A stretch of DNA of 46,251 nt, filler included, from Actinomycetota bacterium (GTDB lineage Bacteria; Actinomycetota; CADDZG01; JAHWKV01; JAOPZY01): assembly GCA_025963875.1 (NCBI GenBank). It is 2 parts of 2 records of this genome, joined end to end, with 100 filler letters (N's around TTAATTAATTAA, not from the genome) between each part and the next. Parts side by side here need not be neighbours in the genome. Positions count along the whole stretch, not along the records: positions 1 to 23,437 come from JAOPZY010000160.1; 1 more part is not named here. One strand, written 5' to 3'. The notes beneath the pieces were generated by a model. The model ran no database searches. It worked only from the letters and a program-made list of their open reading frames with translations, and was not told the DNA's origin. Both the position numbers and the translations under genes were made by a program. Shown piece after piece: positions 1 through 23,537 of the stretch (position 1 is its first letter; each line of letters begins with the position of its first letter).

Positions 1-97
1 CCGTGACGGCCACACCGGTGTCCGCAGGCACACCTCCTCCAGGCGCCTGCCTGCTTCCCGGATCTCGTCCAGGGTCACGAACTCACCCGTCGATGTC

Positions 98-1930
98 ATG
101 CGGGGATTCTGCCATCTCCTGGCGGTACTGGTCGTCTTTGCTGCCCTGGCACCCACCCTGTCGATGAGCACGCCCGCGAGCGCGGGCCAACCGCCGCAAG
201 CCCCCTCGCCCTCGCCAGCCCCTGTCTCTCTCGGCCCCGTTCGCTTCGTCTCGACCGGGGCAGGGTCGAAGATCACGGTCGATGCGACCTTTCCCCCGAA
301 CCCCAGCGCGTGCCAGGCGAACCAGCCCCAGAACCTGCAGGCGGCCTACCCCGGCACCTTCGAAGTCGGCAGGCAGCCCGATGGCCACCTCTACCTGATC
401 ACCGAGCTGACGTTTCCCCAGTACCTGAAGGGCATCGCGGAGGTGCCCGGGAGCTGGCCGCAGCAGGCACTGGAGGCGCAGGTGGTCGCCGCCCGGACCT
501 ACGCGATCGCCCACATGAACACGGGGGGCGCCCAGGCCCGGGAGCTCAACTACAACCTCTGTTCCACCGACGCGTGCCAGGTCTACCGTGGCCTTGCCAT
601 CCAGGACGGGGTCTACGGCGAGAACTGGGCCAAGGCGGTCGACGATACCTCGGGCCAGATCCTCGAATACGGCGGCAAGCCCATCGACGCCTTCTACTTC
701 TCGACGTCGAATGGCCATACCTATTCCGCGGCCGACGTGTTCGGGGGCTCGGGCGCGCCGTACCTCCAACCCGTCAGCGAGTCCGACGACACGGCGTCGC
801 CCACCTCCAGCTGGAGCGTTCGGATGCCCCTGACCGACCTGGCGGAGATCCTCCGGCTGTCGGGCTCGTGGGGCAGCGAGCCGATCGACTCGGTGGCACT
901 GCAGGGTGACACCGTGAAGGTCGCCGGCGGGGGGAAGTCGACCACCATGGCGCTCAGTTCGTTCCGGAACCGCCTGAACAACCAGGGGACCTGCCTCACC
1001 CCGAAGCGCTACCCCACGGCCGCCTCAGGGGGCGGGAACCTCCCACAGGTAGTGCCCTCGGTGTGGATGACCCTGCGCCAGGACGGCTCCGACATCGTGA
1101 TGGCGGGACGGGGATGGGGTCACGGCGTCGGCATGGTCCAGTGGGGAGCGAAGGGCAAGGCCGACCGGGGGCTCGACTACCGGCAGATCCTCTCCTACTA
1201 CTACGGTGGCCTCACCCCGGTGCAGGTAGCTGAGCCCGGCAGCATCAGGGTCCTGCTCGCCACCGGGGTGCAACAGGTCACGGTGGCGCCGAGTGGCCCG
1301 GTGCACGTCGTGGGGGGGCCCTCCGAGGCGCCCCTCAAGGCGCCGGGTAGCCCCGGAGTCGCCGGGACGGTGACCATCACCGGCGGCCCCGCGATGACGA
1401 TCGCTCCGGCGGTCCAGAACGCCATCGCCCCGGGGCTGGCGCTGTCGGGCGTCACCGTGACGGCCACGGCGACGCCGGGCAAGCCGGCGGGCTTCTCCTT
1501 CAACCTGAACCGCGCCGCCAACGTCGGCATCAGCTACCAGCAGGCCGGCGTGACGGCGACGGGCTCGGTGGCCCCCGTCCCGCTGCCCTCCGGGGACCAG
1601 ACGCTGCCGTGGGACCCCATCGCCGCAGGCCTGCCCCCCGGCACCTACGACGCCGCTCTCGTCGCCGACGACGGCGTCTCCCGGGTGGTGTCGCCGTCGT
1701 TCCAGATCACCGTGGCCACCACGGCGCCCACGCCCACGCCGACACCGTCGCGGGCAGCCGTCCTGGGAAGCAGGGGCGTGAAGACGAAGGTGCCGGCGTG
1801 GCTGCCGGTGGGGGTGGGGGCCGTGTTGCTGGTCGTGTTGCTTGGGGCGGGGGCGGGTCTCGCCGTCAAGCGCCGCCGACCACCGCCCGGCCCACCTGGT
1901 CCGCCGAACTTTGCTCCAAAACAACCATAA
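98..1930 (+). CDS. SpoIID/LytB domain protein (putative peptidoglycan lytic transglycosylase) with signal peptide and C-terminal membrane anchor
   Basis: Motifs YLKGIAEVPGSWPQQALEAQVVAARTYA, LCSTDACQVY and GRGWGHGVGMVQWGA; hydrophobic N-terminus; C-terminal TM segment followed by KRRR. Confidence 0.88.
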   Translation: MRGFCHLLAVLVVFAALAPTLSMSTPASAGQPPQAPSPSPAPVSLGPVRFVSTGAGSKITVDATFPPNPSACQANQPQNLQAAYPGTFEVGRQPDGHLYLITELTFPQYLKGIAEVPGSWPQQALEAQVVAARTYAIAHMNTGGAQARELNYNLCSTDACQVYRGLAIQDGVYGENWAKAVDDTSGQILEYGGKPIDAFYFSTSNGHTYSAADVFGGSGAPYLQPVSESDDTASPTSSWSVRMPLTDLAEILRLSGSWGSEPIDSVALQGDTVKVAGGGKSTTMALSSFRNRLNNQGTCLTPKRYPTAASGGGNLPQVVPSVWMTLRQDGSDIVMAGRGWGHGVGMVQWGAKGKADRGLDYRQILSYYYGGLTPVQVAEPGSIRVLLATGVQQVTVAPSGPVHVVGGPSEAPLKAPGSPGVAGTVTITGGPAMTIAPAVQNAIAPGLALSGVTVTATATPGKPAGFSFNLNRAANVGISYQQAGVTATGSVAPVPLPSGDQTLPWDPIAAGLPPGTYDAALVADDGVSRVVSPSFQITVATTAPTPTPTPSRAAVLGSRGVKTKVPAWLPVGVGAVLLVVLLGAGAGLAVKRRRPPPGPPGPPNFAPKQP

Positions 1931-1949
1931 ACGGTCACTTTTGGAGCAA
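1911..1949. repeat. Inverted repeat (REP-like element or terminator) overlapping the SpoIID stop
   Basis: TTGCTCCAAAA (1911-1921) / TTTTGGAGCAA (1939-1949). Confidence 0.6.
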
Positions 1950-2064
1950 CGTTGCTCGTCGAGCACCGAGGAACCGGACGCGACAACGCCGGGGAGGTCC
2001 CCCGGCGCCGTCGACGATGAGTGACTGCTGGCCCCCAAGACCGAGGGCCGACTCCCCGCAAGGT

Positions 2065-2235
2065 TTAGTACTTAATCTTGGTCTCCAGGTAGTTCAGGAT
2101 CGTCTTTGTCGGAGGATGAACATCGTGGACGTTGGTCAAATGGTCCACGAGCTTCCGCATCAACTCATCCTTGGTTGGAGCCGTAATCGGAACCTTGCAG
2201 GTTGCCCCTGCATCAGCTCAACAGATCGATGGCAC
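2065..2235 (-). CDS. 56-aa DUF1059-like small metal-binding protein with in-frame UGA (candidate selenocysteine) at codon 6
   Basis: SD GGAGGTGA 6 nt before GTG; hand translation MPSIC(U)ADAGATCKVPITAPTKDELMRKLVDHLTNVHDVHPPTKTILNYLETKIKY*; UxDxGxxC...ELM...HxxxxH pattern; TGA at 2218-2220. Confidence 0.75.
2189..2206 (-). promoter_or_regulatory. Candidate bacterial SECIS element
   Basis: 11 nt after the UGA: GG-C(bulge)-AACCU-GCA-AGGUU-CC; spacing, bulge position and loop G resemble the E. coli fdhF SECIS. Confidence 0.6.
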
Positions 2236-2303
2236 CGTCTATCACCTCCCCCCGGTATGGATTTCGACACTCGAAGCGAGATGATTCTCGCGCCGGTCGG
2301 GGT

Positions 2304-2474
2304 TTAGTACCTAATCCTCGACTCCAGGTAGTTCAGGAAGAGGCTAGCCTGACTTTCCGGGATCCGGGCCGTTCCGAACCCATAAGGGCAGGCCAGGGGC
2401 CAAATTTGGTCCGTTACACCTGTAGTACCCTCGCGGCCGATAGACGTCCCTTGGACCACCCTTAATTTTGGCAT
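2304..2474 (-). CDS. Putative 56-aa small protein whose C-terminal tail resembles that of the downstream DUF1059-like protein
   Basis: GAGGAG 7 nt before ATG; hand translation MPKLRVVQGTSIGREGTTGVTDQIWPLACPYGFGTARIPESQASLFLNYLESRIRY*. Confidence 0.35.
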   Translation of the reverse strand: MPKLRVVQGTSIGREGTTGVTDQIWPLACPYGFGTARIPESQASLFLNYLESRIRY

Positions 2475-2626
2475 TGAAACGCTCCTCGACGTCGGATTGC
2501 AGGGTACTACGCAATCTTGTGCTCATAGACGCGTGAGAACGCGTGCTGGAGCGCGACTACTCGCGATTTCGCGCGTAAGCACTGGGTCTCCCGAGCAGCT
2601 CTGAGGCCGTCACCCGGAAACTCCGG

Positions 2627-2988
2627 CTAGAGGTAGAGCCCGGTGTTCGACTCCGTCCGTTCCGACGCCACGGCGTGAATGTCCCGCTCCCGCAGCACCA
2701 GGTAGTCCTCCTGGCGGATCTCCACCTCGAAGGCGGTCTCGGGCGCGAAGAGCACGTGGTCCCCGGCCTCGGCGGCGCGCACCAGCGGGCCGACGGCGAC
2801 GACCTCGCCCCACATCGCCCGCTTCGCCTCGGATTCGGCGGTGGCGGGGATGAGGATCCCGCCACGGCTCTTTCGCTCCCCCAGCTCGGTCGGTGGGACG
2901 ACGAGGATCCGGTCCGCCGTCATCCGGATCGACTGCTGGGCCTCGCCGGCGAGTTGCCGGACCGAGGCCACGCCCTCAGAGGGAGACG

Positions 2989-2992
<4 letters not shown>
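2627..2992 (-). CDS. groES: GroES/Cpn10 family co-chaperonin paralogue (start may be the internal MTADR)
   Basis: DRILV...[11 protein letters not shown]...GEVVAVGP...GDHVLF...[12 protein letters not shown]; 4-nt overlap with the clpB stop. Confidence 0.85.
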
Positions 2993-5622
<2,630 letters not shown>

Positions 5623-5629
5623 TCCGGAA

Positions 5630-6085
5630 TCACCCTCCCTGTCCGAAGATTTGCCGCACGTCGTCGAGGCGCGCCAGTACTCCCCAGTGGGGCCGCCTGG
5701 GGGCCGAGCGCTCGGCCTGCTGGCCCTCCGCCTGACGCTGCACCTCGGCCATGCGCCGGCGGACCCGGTCGAGCTGCGCCTGGGCCTCCTCGAGGCGGCG
5801 CTGCATGTCCATGATGATGCGGACCCCGGCGAGATTGACGCCCTCGTCCTGGGTCAGCCGCTGGATCTGGCGGAGCTGCTCGACGTCCCGTTCCGAATAC
5901 CGGCGAGTGTTGCCCGCGGTGCGCTGCGGGGACAGCAGACCCTTCCGCTCGTAGATCCGCAGCGTCTGGGGATGCACGCCGGCCAGGTCGGCCGCGACGC
6001 TGATGACGTAGACCGCGCGCTCCTCGTAGGTGCCTTGTGCCTGCCGCTCTCCCTGATCGCGGGGCCCCTGGCTCTGGATCGACAT
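5630..6085 (-). CDS. hspR: Heat-shock repressor HspR (MerR family)
   Basis: [40 protein letters not shown] and GVNLAGV; follows dnaJ; start placed at ATG 6085. Confidence 0.93.
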
Positions 6086-6089
6086 GGCC

Positions 6090-7091
6090 TCAGCCCTTCG
6101 AGCCGCTTGTGGTCCCGAGGTGCTCACGCGGGGACTCCGGCTGCAGCCCGGCGAATTGCTCGAGCAGATGCTTGGCTTCCTTCGTCAGCTTCTGGGGGAC
6201 GACAACGTTGACCGTGACGAGCATGTCGCCGGCCCTGTCGCCGTTCGTGCCGCCGCCCTTGCCACGGAGCCGGAAGGTCTTGCCCGCCTGCGTCCCCGCG
6301 GGGATCTTCAACGTGACCGTCCCGCCGTCCAGCGTGGGCACCTTGACGTCGGCCCCCAGGGCCGCCTCGGGATACGTGATCGGCAGCGTCAGCGTCAGGT
6401 CGCGGCCCTTGCGGCCGAAGATCTGGTGCGGCACGACGGTCACCTTCACGAACAGGTCCCCCCGCGGCCCACCGTTCGGGGACTCGTCGCCCTTGCCGGG
6501 CACCTTGATCCGCGCGCCGTCGGTCACCCCGGCCGGGATGCGGACCTTGATCGAGCGTTGCTTGCCGCCCGGCTCGGTGAGGTGCAGGCTCGACGTGGTC
6601 CCCTCGAGGGCCTCCCGGAAGGCGAGGGCGATCTCGGTCTCCTGGTCGCGGCCCTTCGTGGGCCGCCCGGCGCGCGCCCCGCCGCCCCGTCCGAAGATCG
6701 AGCCGAAGATCTCGTCGGTGAAGACGTTGCCGCCGCCGCCGCTCTGCCCGGCCCTGGTGAAGATGTCCCCCAGGTCGCCCAGGTCCTCGAAGCGGATGCG
6801 CCGGCCCCCGGCCCCGGCCGGCCCGCCGGCCCCGCCGAAGCCCCCGAAGCCGGAGGTCAGCATCTCCCGGAAGTCGTCGTACTCCTTGCGGGTCTTGGCG
6901 TCGGAGAGCACGTCGTAGGCGTGGGAGACCTCCTTGAACTTCTCCTCCGCCGCCGTGTCGCCGGGGTTGGCGTCCGGGTGGTACTTCTGCGCCAGCTTGC
7001 GGTAGGACTTCTTGATGTCGGCCTCGGGCGCGCCCTTCTGGACGCCCAGGGTGGCGTAGTAGTCCTTGTCCGCCCACTCGCGCTCCGGCAT
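6090..7091 (-). CDS. dnaJ: DnaJ family chaperone, class II (no zinc finger)
   Basis: J-domain with HPD, G/F-rich region and C-terminal domain; no CxxCxGxG repeats. Confidence 0.93.
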
Positions 7092-7112
7092 CGGTCTCTC
7101 CTTTTGAACTCC

Positions 7113-7769
7113 TCAGCCCGTCCCCCGCCGTGCGACCTTCACCATCGAGGGCCGGAGCACCCGCCCCTTGTAGGTGTAGCCGCTGCGCAGCTCCTCGGCG
7201 ACGTACGCCTCGCCGTCCTCCTCGCCGTCGACCTGGAGGGCCGCCTCGTGGTAGTTCGGATCGAAGGCCTTGCCCTTCGCCGCGATGGCGGTGAGCCCCT
7301 CGGCGGTGAGGACCTCCTTCAGCTCTCCGAAGACCATCTCGATGCCTTTCAGCATCCGGTCGAACTCGCGGCTCTCCTCGGCGGAGGCCACCGCCAGCTC
7401 GAAGTTGTCGAGGACCGGCAGCAGGCGGTGCAGGAGGCTGGCCGACGCCCGCTCCACCAGGCCGGTCTGCTCCTTCACGATGCGCTTGCGATAGTTGTCG
7501 AACTCAGCCTTCAGCCGCTGGAGGTCGTCCAGGTAGGCGGCAGCCTCGGCCCGCGCCGCCTCGACCTGGGCCTCCAGCGGGTTCGGCTCGGCGGGGGCCG
7601 TCGGGCCCGCCGGAGCGGCCGGGGCAGGCGGGCCCGCGGGAGGCTCCGGGGCCGCTGCCTGCGTATTCACGCCGGCCGGCACTGTCGCCGCAGCCTCCGG
7701 ATGCAGCTTCCGGCGGTCGTTGATCGTGATGCGCCGCGGCGGCGGTTGGTCGCCTCGATGCTGGTCCAT
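7113..7769 (-). CDS. grpE: Nucleotide exchange factor GrpE
   Basis: RLKAEFDNYRKR, LLPVLDNFELA, FDPNYHEA, GY...RVLRPSMVKV. Confidence 0.96.
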   Translation of the reverse strand: MDQHRGDQPPPRRITINDRRKLHPEAAATVPAGVNTQAAAPEPPAGPPAPAAPAGPTAPAEPNPLEAQVEAARAEAAAYLDDLQRLKAEFDNYRKRIVKEQTGLVERASASLLHRLLPVLDNFELAVASAEESREFDRMLKGIEMVFGELKEVLTAEGLTAIAAKGKAFDPNYHEAALQVDGEEDGEAYVAEELRSGYTYKGRVLRPSMVKVARRGTG

Positions 7770-7770
7770 G

Positions 7771-8247
7771 TCAGCCCCTTTCGTTCCCCGAAGGGGACCC
7801 TGGCCCAGCCTTCACCTCGACGCGAACAGGCTGCGCCTTGGCAACCTTTGCCACCTCGATGGTCAGCAGCCCGTCGGACATCGACGCGTCGATGTGGGCC
7901 GTGTCAGAGCCCTGCGGCAGGGCCACCCGCCGCTGGAACGGACCGAACCGCCGCTCGATGCGATGGAACGACTCTTCGGGGACGTCGCCGTAGAACGTCC
8001 GCTCGCCCCGCAGTGTCAGGACGTTGTCCTCCACCGTGATGTCGACGTCGCCCGTCGTCATCCCGGCAAGCTCTGCAGTGATGATGTAGCGGTCCTGGGT
8101 CTCGTAGACGTCCAGCGGGGGCACCCAGCTTCCCTGGGTTTCCGCCTCCGCCGATTCGCCCGGACCGTAAGTACGGCCGAACAGCCGGTTCATTTCGTTC
8201 TGGATGCCCAACAGGTCCCGGAACGGGTCCCATCTGCGAACAGCCAT
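7771..8247 (-). CDS. Hsp20/alpha-crystallin small heat-shock protein
   Basis: WDPFRDL, WVPPLDVYET, LTLRGER, ERRFGPFQRRVALP, DGLLTI. Confidence 0.93.
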   Translation of the reverse strand: MAVRRWDPFRDLLGIQNEMNRLFGRTYGPGESAEAETQGSWVPPLDVYETQDRYIITAELAGMTTGDVDITVEDNVLTLRGERTFYGDVPEESFHRIERRFGPFQRRVALPQGSDTAHIDASMSDGLLTIEVAKVAKAQPVRVEVKAGPGSPSGNERG

Positions 8248-8261
8248 CTCGGAGCCTCCTT

Positions 8262-10109
8262 TCAGTGTCCTTCGTCAACGATCTCTGCGTCCACGACGTC
8301 GTCGTCCGACGAGGCCTTGTGATCGCCGGTGTGATCGGCGGCGGTGGCGTCGCCCTGCTGGCCCTGGCTCGTGTGGTAGATCTGCTCGGCCAGCTTGTGG
8401 GAGGCCGTCACCAGCGCATCGGATGCCGTCTTGATGCGGGCGGCGTCGTCGCTCTTGAGTGCGTCCTTGACCTCTCCGAGGGCCTGCTCGACGGCACGGC
8501 GGTCGGCCTCGTTCAGCTTGTCGCCATGCTCCTTGAGGGTCTTCTCGGTCTGGTAGGCGAGATTGTCCGCCATGTTGCGGGCCTCAGCCACCTCACGCCG
8601 CCGCCGGTCCTCCTCGGCGAAGCGCTCGGCCTCCTTCATCATCTTCTCCATCTCGTCCTTGGGCAGGGCCGTGCCGCCGGTGATGGTCATGGCCTGCGCC
8701 TTGCCCGTCCCGAGGTCCTTGGCCGCCACGTGGACGATGCCGTTGGCGTCGATGTCGAAGGTCACCTCGATCTGGGGCATGCCTCGCGGCGCTGCCGGGA
8801 TGCCCACCAGCTGGAACCGGCCCAGGGTCCGGGCGCCGGGGGAGTAGACGGTTTCCGCCTCGCCCTGGAGCACGTGGACCTCGACCGAGGGCTGGTTGTC
8901 CTCGGCGGTGGAGAACACCTCGGACTTCTTGGTCGGGATGGTGGTGTTGCGCTCGATCAGCTTGGTGAAGATGCCGCCCTTGGTCTCGATGCCGAGCGAC
9001 AGCGGCGTGACGTCGAGGAGCAGCACGTCCTTGACCTCACCCTTGAGCACGCCCGCCTGGAGAGCGGCGCCGATGGCGACGACCTCGTCCGGGTTCACGC
9101 CCTTGTGCGGCTCCTTGCCGCCGGTGAGGCTCTTCACCAGGTCCTGGACCATGGGCATCCGGGTTGAGCCGCCGACCAGGATGACGTGGTTGATCTGGCC
9201 CACCGGCTTGCCCCAGTCCTTGACCGCCTGGTTGAAGGGGTCCTTCAGGCGCTGCACCAGGTCCTCGGTGAGCTGCTCGAAGGCGGAGCGGGTGAGCTTC
9301 ATCTCGAAGTGGATCGGCCCGGTCGCCTCGGTGGCGGTGAGGAACGGCAGGGTGATGGTGGTCTCGGCCGCCTGGGAGAGCTCGATCTTGGCCTTCTCGG
9401 CGGCTTCCTTGAAGCGCTGGAGGGCCATACGGTCATTCGAGAGGTCGACGCCGTGGTTGTTCTTCACTTCTTTGATCATGGTGTCGATGATCCGCTGGTC
9501 CCAGTCGTCGCCACCGAGGTGGGTGTCACCGGACGTGGCCTTGACCTCGAAGACGCCGTCGCCGATCTCCAGCAGCGACACGTCGAAGGTCCCACCGCCG
9601 AGGTCGAACACGAGGATCGTCTGATCGGCCGACTTGTCGAGCCCGTAGGCGAGCGACGAGGCGGTGGGCTCGTTGATGATCCGGAGCACCTCGAGGCCGG
9701 CGATCTGGCCGGCTTCCTTGGTCGCCTGGCGCTGGGCGTCGTTGAAGTAGGCCGGGACGGTGACGATCGCCTGTACGATCTTGTCGCCCAGGTAGGCCTC
9801 GGCGTCTCGCTTCAACTTCATGAGGATCTGGGCGGAGATCTCCTGGGGCGTCCACTTCTTCCCGTCGATGCTCGTGGACCAGGAGGTCCCCATCTCCCGC
9901 TTGATGGAGCGGAAGGTCCGGTCGGGGTTCGTGATGGCTTGGCGCTTGGCGACCTCGCCGACGAGGATCTCTCCGGTCTTGCTGAAGGCGACCACCGATG
10001 GGGTGGTCCGATGGCCCTCGGCGTTGGGGATGACGACGGGCTCCCCTCCCTCGAGGACCGAGACCACGGAGTTGGTGGTCCCCAGGTCGATTCCAACGGC
10101 TTTCGGCAT
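8262..10109 (-). CDS. dnaK: Chaperone DnaK
   Basis: [31 protein letters not shown]; 615 aa. Confidence 0.98.
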
Positions 10110-10237
10110 GGCACATCCCTTTCTTCTTGCTTCGTATTGTTCTTGGCTGTTTTGTTTGCTTCGTCTGAAGCTCTGGGAGGCCTACCGCATCGGTTTGGGA
10201 TCGCCCGGCCCCCGCAACGCTTGGCCCCAGATTAGGA

Positions 10238-10258
10238 CCTGAGTGCCATGCTGTCAAC
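10238..10258. promoter_or_regulatory. Degenerate HAIR (HspR operator) upstream of dnaK
   Basis: CCTGAGT-N7-TGTCAAC versus consensus CTTGAGT-N7-ACTCAAG; hspR is in the operon. Confidence 0.6.
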
Positions 10259-10438
10259 TTTTATGATGCTGGGCGTTAACCGCCGCGGCGGGACCTGGCG
10301 GACAACTATCTGGCCGTCGTCGACGGGGTCCTGCGGGCCAGGCCGACCGCCAAGGACAAGTACCTTAAGTCGGTGACTCTTGCCGCCAGCATGAGACCGA
10401 GGTCCAGACCTCGTAGCGAGCCTCCGGAGATCAGCGAG

Positions 10439-10487
10439 GTAGTTTCCGTCAAAAAGTGGGCTCACGGCCCTTTTTGACGGAATCTAC
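10439..10487. repeat. Long imperfect hairpin (REP-like)
   Basis: GTAG-T-TTCCGTCAAAAAG...CTTTTTGACGGAA-T-CTAC. Confidence 0.65.
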
Positions 10488-10890
10488 TCCCTGACCGAGC
10501 CGAGCTGGCCGCCGGACACGACCGCGGCCCCCCTGGACGGTCGTCCTGGGGGACTCGCGAAGACGAAATCCTCGGCGATGTGGCGGGCCGGGGGCTCGCT
10601 ACGTAAATCACAGGAATGTAGGTCGATTGCACGAACATCCCGGGGGGCACCGAACAACCTCCGGGGCCGTGAATCGCCGGTTGTATCGGAACTGCGATGC
10701 CAGGCCGACAACGCCCTGCTCAAAGACGGTACCCGGCGACGGCGCTGTCTCGGCCGCAGTGGAGCAACCGGCTAGCCGGCACTCGACCGCCGCCCGGCTC
10801 TCGTTGACAGGACGCCGTCAGCGCCGACGCATCTCGCGAAACTGTTGTCGGCTGCAATAGTTATCATGGGCAACAGATCCTACGGAGGGC

Positions 10891-11376
10891 TTGCCACTGT
10901 TGCCGGAGCACGAGCCGGTCGATGACGAGGCGCTGGTCTCTGCCGTGTTGCTGGCCTCGCGGGCACTGGTCGCCATCGCTGCCCGCTCGCTGGCGGCGGC
11001 CCCGGCGGATGTCACCCTCGCCCAGTATCGCCTGCTCGTCCTCCTCGCCTCGCGCGGCCCCCACATCCCTTCGGCGATCGCCGCCGACCTCGGCGCAGCC
11101 CCCTCGTCGGTCACCCGCCTGTGCGACCGGCTGGTGGCCAAGGGCCTGATCACCCGCCGGGCGTCCACCGACAACCGCCGGGAGGTGCTGGCATCGATCT
11201 CGCCCGCCGGACGGCGGGTGGTCGATGCGGTGACCCGCGTGCGGCGCAGCGAGATCGAGCGGGTGGTCCGGGCCGTCCCCCCGGGGCGGCGGGCCAACGT
11301 CATCGAGGCGTTGAACGATCTCGGGTCGGCGGCCGGCGAGGTCCCCGACCCGTCGTGGCGCCTGGGCTGGGAATGA
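10891..11376 (+). CDS. MarR family transcriptional regulator
   Basis: VTLAQYRLLVLL, SSVTRLCDRLVAKGLITR, DNRRE; start codon uncertain (TTG). Confidence 0.88.
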   Translation: MPLLPEHEPVDDEALVSAVLLASRALVAIAARSLAAAPADVTLAQYRLLVLLASRGPHIPSAIAADLGAAPSSVTRLCDRLVAKGLITRRASTDNRREVLASISPAGRRVVDAVTRVRRSEIERVVRAVPPGRRANVIEALNDLGSAAGEVPDPSWRLGWE

Positions 11377-13088
11377 CCGAAGCCCGCGCCGCGCAGCGCT
11401 TCCGAGCCGGCTTCGAGCGCCGCCGTGGGCAGATCGCGGCCCTCGGCCGGCGGGGGAGCCAGGTCCTCGTCCTCGCTGGGTTGACCGGGGTGCTGACCGG
11501 CCTGGCGGTCGCAGGGTTCGAGTGGGTGACGCGCGACCAACTCTTCGAGGGCCTCCGGGACCAGCCGGTCGGGGTGCAGGTCGCCGCGCCCCTCGTCGGC
11601 CTCCTTCTCGCGGCGGCGATCCTGCGATGGATCGCCCGGACGACCTCCCCGGCGACCGCAGACGAGTACATCCACAACTTCCACGAGACGGGGCGCAGGC
11701 TCGACCTGCGGCTCCTGCCGGGAAGGATCCTCGCCAGCATGGTCACGCTCGGCTTCGGCGGGGCCCTGGGCTACGAAGGCCCGTCGATCTACCTGGGGGC
11801 GGGGATCGGCTCGGCGCTGCAGGCCCGCTTCAGCCGCTTGTTCTCCCGCAGCGACGTCAAGGTCCTCCTGGTGGCCGGCGCCGCCGCCGGTGTGGCCGCC
11901 ATCTTCAAGGCACCCGCCACCGGCCTTGTCTTCGCCCTGGAGGTGCCGTACCAGGAGGACTTCGCCCGGCGGATGCTCCTGCCGGCCGGGATCGCGGCCG
12001 CTTCGAGTTACGTCGTGTTCGCCACCTTCTACGGCACGGCCCCCCTCTTCGCCGTCAGCGGCGCTCCCCCGTTCGACTTCCGGGACCTGGCCGGCGCCGT
12101 CGTGCTGGGGGTCATCTGCGGGGTGGGGGCACGGGGGTTCACGCGGGCGCTGGCGCGTGCGAAGCAGCTGTCGGGGCGGGGGAACCCGTGGGTCCGGGCC
12201 GCCGGCGCCGGCGTTGGCCTCGGGGGCCTCGCGGCCGCCTCCTATGCCCTCTTCGGCTCGGCGCTGACCCTCGGCCCCGGGTACGACAACCTCCAGTGGG
12301 CGTTCAATCCCCACCGGGCCGTCATCCTCGTCGTGGCCCTCCTCCTCATGCGGGCGGCGGCCACGGTGGTGACCGTCGCCGGGGGTGGTGCCGGAGGGCT
12401 GTTCATCCCACTCGTGGTGGAGGGGGCGCTCCTGGGCCGGACGCTCGGGGGGATCTTCCGCACCGCTTCCTCGGGGAGCAACTTCTTCCCGCTCGTCGGG
12501 GTGTCGGCCTTCCTGGGAGCCGGCTACCGGGTGCCCCTTGCCGCCGTGGTGTTCGCTGCGGAGGCAAGCGGGAGGCCCGGCTTCATCGTGCCCGGTCTCA
12601 TCGCCGCCATGGTGTCCCAGCTCTTCATGGGTTCCGCCTCCGCCTCCACCTACCAGATGAGCGCCCGGGCCGGGCACCTGGAGCGGCGCTTCCCCCTGCC
12701 CCTTTCGTCCGCCCTGCGGACCGATGCCGCAACCGCCGCTCCCGACATGACCCTGGACGAGTTCTTCCGCTACCACGCGGTGGGCCTTCGTGAGCACGCC
12801 GCCGTCGTCGTCGAGCAAGGCCGGTACCTGGGGGTTGTCCGCGTCGAGGAGCTGGCCGAGACCCCCCAGGAGCTGTGGGCCACCACACCTGTCTCGGACC
12901 TCATGCGCATGGACTTCCCGACCGCCGATCCGCTCTGGCACCTCCGTGATGCGCTCGGGGCCATGGAGAGGGCCGACATCGACCTGCTGCCGGTGGTGGA
13001 GGGGGAGCGGTTCGTCGGGGTGGTGACCACGGCCGAGATCCTGAAGCTCGACGACATCCTGCAGATCACCGGCGACGAAGAGACGTGA
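11373..13088 (+). CDS. ClC-family chloride channel/antiporter with C-terminal CBS pair
   Basis: LGYEGP, AGAAAGVAAIFKAPATG and GGLFIP motifs, many TM segments, CBS repeats; ATGA overlap with marR. Confidence 0.9.
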   Translation: MTEARAAQRFRAGFERRRGQIAALGRRGSQVLVLAGLTGVLTGLAVAGFEWVTRDQLFEGLRDQPVGVQVAAPLVGLLLAAAILRWIARTTSPATADEYIHNFHETGRRLDLRLLPGRILASMVTLGFGGALGYEGPSIYLGAGIGSALQARFSRLFSRSDVKVLLVAGAAAGVAAIFKAPATGLVFALEVPYQEDFARRMLLPAGIAAASSYVVFATFYGTAPLFAVSGAPPFDFRDLAGAVVLGVICGVGARGFTRALARAKQLSGRGNPWVRAAGAGVGLGGLAAASYALFGSALTLGPGYDNLQWAFNPHRAVILVVALLLMRAAATVVTVAGGGAGGLFIPLVVEGALLGRTLGGIFRTASSGSNFFPLVGVSAFLGAGYRVPLAAVVFAAEASGRPGFIVPGLIAAMVSQLFMGSASASTYQMSARAGHLERRFPLPLSSALRTDAATAAPDMTLDEFFRYHAVGLREHAAVVVEQGRYLGVVRVEELAETPQELWATTPVSDLMRMDFPTADPLWHLRDALGAMERADIDLLPVVEGERFVGVVTTAEILKLDDILQITGDEET

Positions 13089-23437: not shown

Positions 23438-23537
23438 NNNNNNNNNNNNNNNNNNNNNNNNNNNNNNNNNNNNNNNNNNNNTTAATTAATTAANNNNNNN
23501 NNNNNNNNNNNNNNNNNNNNNNNNNNNNNNNNNNNNN
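23438..23537. other. Artificial contig linker (44 N + TTAATTAATTAA + 44 N)
   Basis: Symmetric N runs around a 12-mer that has stop codons in all six frames. Confidence 0.97.

Follow-up and report, generated by a model that had tools for sequence, protein, structure and literature searches.

A candidate SECIS hairpin at the fdhF spacing in a predicted selenoprotein gene of the DUF1059 family in Actinomycetota

The closest described counterpart of the element considered here is the SECIS of fdhF in E. coli. In that gene (NC_000913.3), the UGA is codon 140, and a hairpin of 17 nt (+15..+31, the U of UGA being counted as +1 here and below) follows it after a spacer of 11 nt. The hairpin starts with GG at +15, bulges a single pyrimidine, U17, holds G22 and G23 in its loop, and closes with CC. 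A review (PMC8659212) gives U17, G23, and U24 as the key SECIS bases. According to PMC4513850, the ribosome covers about 11 nt and unwinds the region by the UGA in fdhF, such melting under the ribosome being the known behavior of any lower part of a SECIS, and early recruitment of SelB is proposed to matter in E. coli. A broader consensus is embodied in the bSECISearch rules as presented in PMC13188914: a loop of 3–9 nt that lies 16–37 nt from the UGA and has G among its first two positions, an upper stem of 4–16 bp, and a free energy of at most -7.5 kcal/mol. Within the phylum, a preprint (10.64898/2026.03.03.709296) describes formate dehydrogenase (FDH) as the only selenoprotein of mycobacteria.

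A small gene of an actinomycetotal genome contains a UGA followed by a hairpin in the fdhF register. We compare this locus with fdhF, with the consensus, and with its own homologues. The window, by which is meant the whole stretch of 46,251 nucleotides analyzed, joins two pieces; only positions 1–23437 come from contig C271, and positions 23438–23500 are a run of N with the linker.

A DUF1059 gene interrupted by UGA and its homologues

An unannotated gene of the family DUF1059 (PF06348) occupies 2235–2065 on the minus strand and is predicted to encode a selenoprotein of 56 codons, with a GTG start and a TAA stop. A Shine-Dalgarno-like GGAGGTGA (2242..2249, minus strand) lies 6 nt 5' of the start codon, and the identical 8-mer precedes 26 of 27 orthologous starts. 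The UGA (2218..2220, minus strand), whose frame position the first-pass annotation had left unstated, proves to be in frame. It is codon 6, predicted to specify selenocysteine (Sec), and aligns with the first conserved Cys of DUF1059. With U read as C, the protein matches the Pfam model at 39.2 bits (gathering cut-off 21.1), and the sequence downstream of the UGA, matched from profile position 7, is enough by itself for 30.6 bits against the same cut-off. No NCBIfam model matches the protein at E ≤ 1. Contigs from RNA libraries of three studies, one of them a study of the possible source sample, span the UGA with no difference listed, though such contigs may derive from DNA. Gene callers miss the Sec form: the 31 matches in the protein library are exclusively Cys forms and fragments that start after the UGA.

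When 61 genomes were searched for DUF1059, 31 of them yielded 82 matches in total. Of these matches, 78 were recovered; three were unfetched, and one, in a genome without selA (G052), was rejected as spurious. A motif filter removed four more (three Cys members and one broken frame), leaving 74 aligned homologues. Where the family has its first Cys, 42 of the 74 carry TGA and 32 carry Cys. These rows include some from unpublished genomes, three with TGA (G009, G030) and two with Cys (G035, G060), which were kept out of the tree described below and on which the conclusion about TGA and Cys does not depend. Among orthologous loci, TGA stands at this codon in 26 of 27. The named relatives are Actinomycetota MAGs. 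In a sample of the whole phylum, DUF1059 was found in 91 of 401 genomes. Forty of these regions were fetched, chosen either for a Pfam match starting after position 6 or for the presence of TGA. Four have TGA, in three genomes outside the class, and in the other 36 no UGA was found at the Sec column.

UGA and Cys have exchanged repeatedly. A FastTree phylogeny of 106 sequences, whose deep branches are weak for a protein of only 56 residues, calls for at least 11 changes between Sec and Cys, and in it the Cys copies of this locus nest among Sec copies. In family, length, and the pattern Cys-x6-Cys...His-x4-His, the window protein is like the Cys-type members of DUF1059. It differs from them in that its first Cys is replaced by UGA and in that an additional Cys comes before, giving a Cys-Sec pair in 21 of 23 orthologous coding sequences (CDS) of this clade. 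Across 29 sequences, C13, H32, and H37 are invariant, and column 6 is at least 90% conserved. Taken with the preserved reading frame and the selenium machinery considered below, the interchange makes it very probable that the window UGA encodes Sec and that the DUF1059 gene is that of a selenoprotein.

The candidate SECIS hairpin and an overlapping fold

The first-pass annotation had described the fdhF geometry correctly and had read the same layout here. The layout is borne out on the minus strand, where the UGA (2220–2218) is directly followed by an 11-nt spacer (2217–2207) and then by the candidate SECIS hairpin (2206–2189, +15..+32). The hairpin consists of two base pairs, the bulged C17, five base pairs, and the loop G23-C24-A25. 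Like the fdhF element, it begins with GG at +15 after a spacer of 11 nt, bulges one pyrimidine at +17, presents G23 in the loop, and closes with CC; the stand-alone energies of the two are also similar (-4.2 versus -4.5 kcal/mol). The two differ in that the window hairpin has 18 nt rather than 17, its UGA is codon 6 rather than codon 140, and its bulged base is C rather than U. C17 is found in 16 of 16 distinct Sec segments because the Ala11 codon fixes it. The loop has C24 in place of U24, which appears in only 4 of the 23 orthologous Sec CDS, and in free mRNA G23 is paired within a competing hairpin, unlike in fdhF. G23 itself (position 2198, the middle base of the Cys13 codon) is present in 16 of 16 segments, and the fdh and selD genes of the host likewise have G23 in the loop, their loops being GGU.

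Held against the bSECISearch rules as given in PMC13188914, the hairpin conforms in its 3-nt loop, its 5-bp upper stem, its G in first place, and its 19 nt from UGA to loop. It departs from the consensus in that the window allele lacks the usual G[G/U] loop pattern and in that its free energy reaches the threshold only with a lower stem added (-4.5 to -6.1 kcal/mol alone, -9.3 to -9.7 kcal/mol with the lower stem forced). Rfam's SECIS families gave no match at the gathering score; a tRNA was all that matched the window. The published rule is loose, being satisfied after 198 of 669 true UGA stops in this genome, while the exact fdhF register is found after 5 of the 669.

How much of the hairpin has been maintained by selection is harder to judge, since it is largely dictated by the codons: G23 falls in the middle of a Cys codon, and the protein sequence constrains much of the stem. 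The window hairpin's score is reached in about 17% of 40 synonymous shuffles, and a further comparison with such shuffles gives z = -0.29. Over a wider set of segments, the observed hairpin exceeds its synonymous null in 37 of 53 with TGA versus 12 of 40 with Cys, the segments being kin and thus not independent. Constrained energy, compared between TGA and Cys within spacing classes, shows no difference (p = 0.38 and 0.44), and the synonymous entropy of codons 7–16 (0.44) is barely under that of the rest (0.54). A check for covariation, which had been proposed at the outset, came out in favor of the hairpin at one pair and in favor of the competing fold at none. At pair 18–30, both of whose sites are synonymous, 6 of the 16 distinct Sec segments have A-U and 7 have G-C, and 3 of 500 shuffles reached the covariation score. 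The exchange follows a split between subclades and may amount to one or two events or to GC drift. The bottom pairs 15–32 and 16–31 are kept in 15 and 16 of the 16 segments, respectively.

All 23 Sec CDS share one Thr12 codon (C20, C21), and synonymous changes at this codon have cost the two diverged Cys copies the hairpin fold. The first-pass annotation held that equal presence of the hairpin in Cys homologues would speak against it. Such presence was found in part: three of the five Cys copies at this locus retain the hairpin, probably because they are recent copies, as their nesting among Sec copies suggests. In a Sec paralogue with Ile15 (4 of the 23 CDS), the UGA is kept, yet the stem is broken and the probability of the hairpin is near 0.

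On balance, we favor the reading in which the hairpin, as drawn or nearly so, is the SECIS of the DUF1059 gene, though with reservations: as an insertion signal it is plausible and unproven, while the unit of UGA and SECIS is probably real and functional. Perhaps, instead, the gene encodes a selenoprotein whose working SECIS is looser or different, either a loop centered on G23 whose stem is short and variable, or the original upper stem with its loop above another lower stem, in which +13..+17 pair with +40..+44 (2177..2181, minus strand). The two bottom pairs and the C17 bulge would then be incidental. A change of G15 to A, which disrupts the original bottom pair, suits the alternative lower stem, and the two structures fit equally well, both being about 95% paired. 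Moreover, the register of the stem shifts across subfamilies while the best loop obeying the rules keeps its place at the second Cys codon (36 of 53 TGA segments versus 18 of 40 Cys segments), and the Ile15 paralogue retains its UGA despite its broken stem. Against this, the alternative lower stem is broken at pair 14–43 in 3 of 16 segments with no compensatory change, and the original bottom pairs are retained almost throughout, as noted above. We regard this reading as unlikely, if the most serious of those that compete with the hairpin as drawn. A third register, produced by RNAalifold from unmasked segments (13–17 with 28–32, enclosing a 10-nt loop), was set aside, its covariation being weak (-0.21).

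The competing fold is a 6-bp hairpin at 2196..2212 (+9..+25, minus strand) that pairs G23 and can be extended into the UGA itself (+2..+6 with +27..+31). As had been described, it starts 5 nt after the UGA and shares nucleotides with the candidate SECIS, so that the two are mutually exclusive. It had also been proposed that a ribosome at the UGA would cover the 5' arm of the competitor and so favor the SECIS-like fold. In equilibrium predictions, as all the folding probabilities given here are, the proposal holds locally. The competitor of the window allele stays at a probability (P) of 1.00 as long as +11 is exposed and falls to 0.49 when the free mRNA begins at +12 and to 0.12 when it begins at +13. 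Masking its 5' arm flips the fold, the SECIS-like structure rising from P 0.05 unmasked to 0.88 with +13..+48 free. When more of the mRNA is considered, however, with +13..+75 free, a third fold downstream takes the 3' arm and leaves the SECIS-like fold of the window allele at P 0.03–0.12, and only 6 of 23 Sec CDS reach P ≥ 0.5. Fast local folding or the binding of SelB could override such equilibrium folds.

One might suppose that the competitor has been selected as an anti-SECIS, concealing G23 before the ribosome arrives at codons 5–6, preventing early loading of SelB, and making expression depend steeply on selenium or on ribosome pausing. The competitor dominates the free mRNA of the window and is dominant in 16 of the 23 Sec CDS. 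The codons that favor it (Asp8 GAT in 23 of 23, Ala9 GCA in 20 of 23) end in A or T within a genome of 69% GC, and A stands at +12 in 28 of 53 TGA segments versus 14 of 40 Cys segments. The importance proposed for early SelB recruitment in E. coli (PMC4513850) speaks for the same idea. But the entire gene is AT-rich (50–55% GC), so the favoring codons need no special reason. Furthermore, none of the pairs in the competitor is compensatory, 4 of 16 segments carry a mismatch in it, its P is 0.00 in 5 of the 23 Sec CDS, and 4 of 5 Cys copies have it as well. The absence of covariation, its absence from those five CDS, and the existence of the third fold leave a conserved switch unsupported, and we consider selection for one improbable. 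Most likely, the competitor is a by-product of the Ala-Gly...Thr-Cys codons. If it is effective at all, it should hinder insertion, since by pairing G23 it would block the early SelB loading proposed in PMC4513850, and it may lower efficiency in some alleles.

To return to the favored reading, the small DUF1059 protein would have Sec at codon 6, specified by the UGA, and the SECIS that binds SelB would fairly probably be the hairpin or, at a minimum, the upper stem and G23 loop within it. A ribosome at codon 6 would cover about 11 nt after the UGA and melt the overlapping hairpin, and the local stem-loop would then offer G23 to the complex of SelB, GTP, and Sec-tRNA, leading to the insertion of Sec. 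Where insertion fails at codon 6, a peptide of five residues would be released.

Selenium machinery and genomic neighborhood

The genome carries selA adjacent to selB, along with selD containing an in-frame TGA, all above curated cut-offs, and a formate-dehydrogenase-like gene with TGA. No tRNA-Sec above cut-off was found by Rfam, ARAGORN, or a pattern scan in this assembly of 273 contigs, nor was one found in G001; 17 low-threshold UCA calls from a relaxed run of ARAGORN were not accepted. Four of five relatives have tRNA-Sec above cut-off, and one relative (G005) has two such matches, at C55:3940-4029 and C30:363-452. A selA match is present in each of the 27 genomes that have a TGA member, two of these matches being partial and at contig ends, but as 56 of the 61 relatives have selA, the co-occurrence is a weak test.

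Upstream of the DUF1059 gene and on the same (minus) strand lies a chaperone cluster (2627..10109) of dnaK, hsp20, grpE, dnaJ, hspR, clpB, and a groES-like gene. Either groES or clpB is upstream in 20 of the 27 orthologous loci; five of the others have short flanks, and two with about 2 kb have neither. On the other side, a gene on the plus strand (98–1930), convergent with the selenoprotein gene, encodes a secreted protein with a SpoIID/LytB domain and a C-terminal membrane anchor, and it is syntenic in many orthologous loci. A scan of 1900–3100 for sigma-70 promoters and terminators gave none, and no pattern like an HspR operator was found in 1–12000.

Between groES and the DUF1059 gene is a MITE-like insertion of 279 bp (2348..2626, with no strand assigned), bounded by imperfect terminal inverted repeats of 14 bp and by a duplicated CTAG (2344–2347 and 2627–2630). 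CTAG is an IS5-type target. Two other loci (L108 and L110) show the empty site, blastn found no second copy in the assembly, and one junction is spanned without differences by a 213-nt contig of run X3. The insertion may affect read-through from groES; the RNA contigs do not cover it and have no bearing on co-transcription. Next to it (2304..2343, minus strand), an upstream DUF1059 copy has been deleted except for its last codons; 38 nt of this 3' remnant are 89% identical to 2062–2099. An ORF of 56 codons at 2474–2304 on the minus strand was rejected as a second gene. It is the insertion fused to the remnant and has no Pfam or NCBIfam match, and its equality in length with the DUF1059 gene is probably coincidence.

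Several loci have two to four tandem copies of DUF1059, Sec and Cys together. In L102–L107, L109, L112, and L113, arrays of two to four copies follow groES, with Cys-Sec copies mixed with Arg-Cys copies, and some of the Cys copies are nearly identical in DNA to the adjacent Sec copy, which suggests recent duplication or conversion. In the sister family (L026, L028, L050, L052, L060), one Sec and one Cys copy are immediate neighbors, and the loci with enough flanking sequence to show it (L026, L028) have gltX next to the pair. This genome has a second UGA-bearing DUF1059 paralogue (L013, G000:C88:890-1057), whose hairpin is poor under the bSECIS rule (0.16). It lies directly downstream of msrB-msrA, and msrB-msrA is upstream also in 3 of 14 other loci tested. 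In another genome (L033, G021:C427), a UGA-bearing DUF1059 gene is about 500 bp from the end of selB. Cys-type DUF1059 genes in L149, L154, L156, L159, and L041 are among genes for hydrogenase maturation and NifU-like genes, and DUF1059 has been noted in clusters of group 1m hydrogenases (PMC9561532). The context of DUF1059 genes is therefore mixed: chaperones, msrB-msrA, selB, gltX, and hydrogenase maturation genes. The chaperone neighbors here set the window gene apart from the several Cys members found among hydrogenase maturation genes.

The UGA might be a true stop, marking either a pseudogene or a gene for a peptide of five codons, with the hairpin a chance product of codons. The failure to find tRNA-Sec in this assembly, the insertion and the deleted DUF1059 copy just upstream, and the unexceptional standing of the hairpin among synonymous shuffles would all be in keeping with decay. 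Decay would not, however, be expected to leave what is observed across 23 distinct CDS, an intact frame after the UGA with mainly synonymous change, nor a stop that in 27 genomes is without exception TGA and never falls outside the Cys column, nor a strong Shine-Dalgarno sequence and a start codon 5' of the UGA. We consider this very improbable. Still more so is the decoding of UGA as Cys or Trp, through a reassigned code or through readthrough independent of a SECIS, although reassignment of UGA to Trp is reported in another family of actinomycetes (PMC13462651). UGA is the main stop codon here, at the end of 671 of 1112 long ORFs, and it also terminates 6 of 7 chaperone-cluster genes, so the code is not changed; homologues have Cys rather than Trp in the UGA column, and the default output of ARAGORN contains no UCA tRNA.

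The protein and its significance

AlphaFold2 gives the protein two strands and two helices (pLDDT 94.7). A search of PDB sequences returned nothing under E 0.64, Foldseek gave no match at E ≤ 0.001, and the best VIA Z was 3.9 (rmsd 2.0, 43 aligned); on this basis, no fold is assigned and no new fold is claimed. The residues of ligand type are predicted to be Cys5-Sec6, Cys13, His32, and His37. To judge by invariance rather than by distances, Sec6, Cys13, His32, and His37 are probably the ligands of a single metal, such as Zn. The label of the family is "small metal-binding protein" (COG5466). The vicinal Cys-Sec, with a presumed role as metal ligand, recalls the CU-motif selenoproteins of Table 1 in PMC13188914 (KCU-star/DUF466, MbdU, SaoC, and HgcA). 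Those belong to different families, and no NCBIfam model links the window protein to them at the threshold given above. The place of the gene behind a chaperone cluster, along with that of the Sec paralogue behind msrB-msrA, suggests a role in stress that damages proteins. The protein may thus be a redox-sensitive metal buffer or chaperone, a prediction that we hold only tentatively.

No literature was found that links DUF1059, COG5466, or "small metal-binding protein" to selenoproteins or selenocysteine, and papers naming DUF1059 do not, as listed, concern selenoproteins. PF06348/DUF1059 is absent from the main text and the 119-family Table 1 of the 2026 review PMC13188914 and from the text and four supplements of PMC12013277; the family list of BSepDB (PMC13326102) may bear on the matter. 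The locus probably combines a known mechanism with a protein family that the selenoprotein list checked here (PMC13188914, in the parts named) does not include.

A more ambitious picture would make the locus a selenium-gated module for a micro-protein at the end of a heat-shock cluster, with Sec at codon 6 placed behind the anti-SECIS, a SECIS switched on by the ribosome, and SelB loaded late. We think it improbable. If it were true, a failed attempt at insertion would cost five residues, the tandem Cys copies would be the selenium-independent version, and the SECIS would be tuned allele by allele through synonymous sites.

The preferred reading, a DUF1059 selenoprotein with its SECIS just after the UGA, adds a probable selenoprotein family in little-studied Actinomycetota of soil metagenomes. 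Selenium would take the place of a likely metal ligand, and at 56 residues the protein is of a size fit for synthesis and NMR. The Sec and Cys copies lying side by side offer a natural test set for the contribution of Sec to a metal site. Alleles that form the competing fold and alleles that lack it offer another, for the recruitment of SelB by a SECIS that has a loop other than that of E. coli or that lies near the start of its gene.
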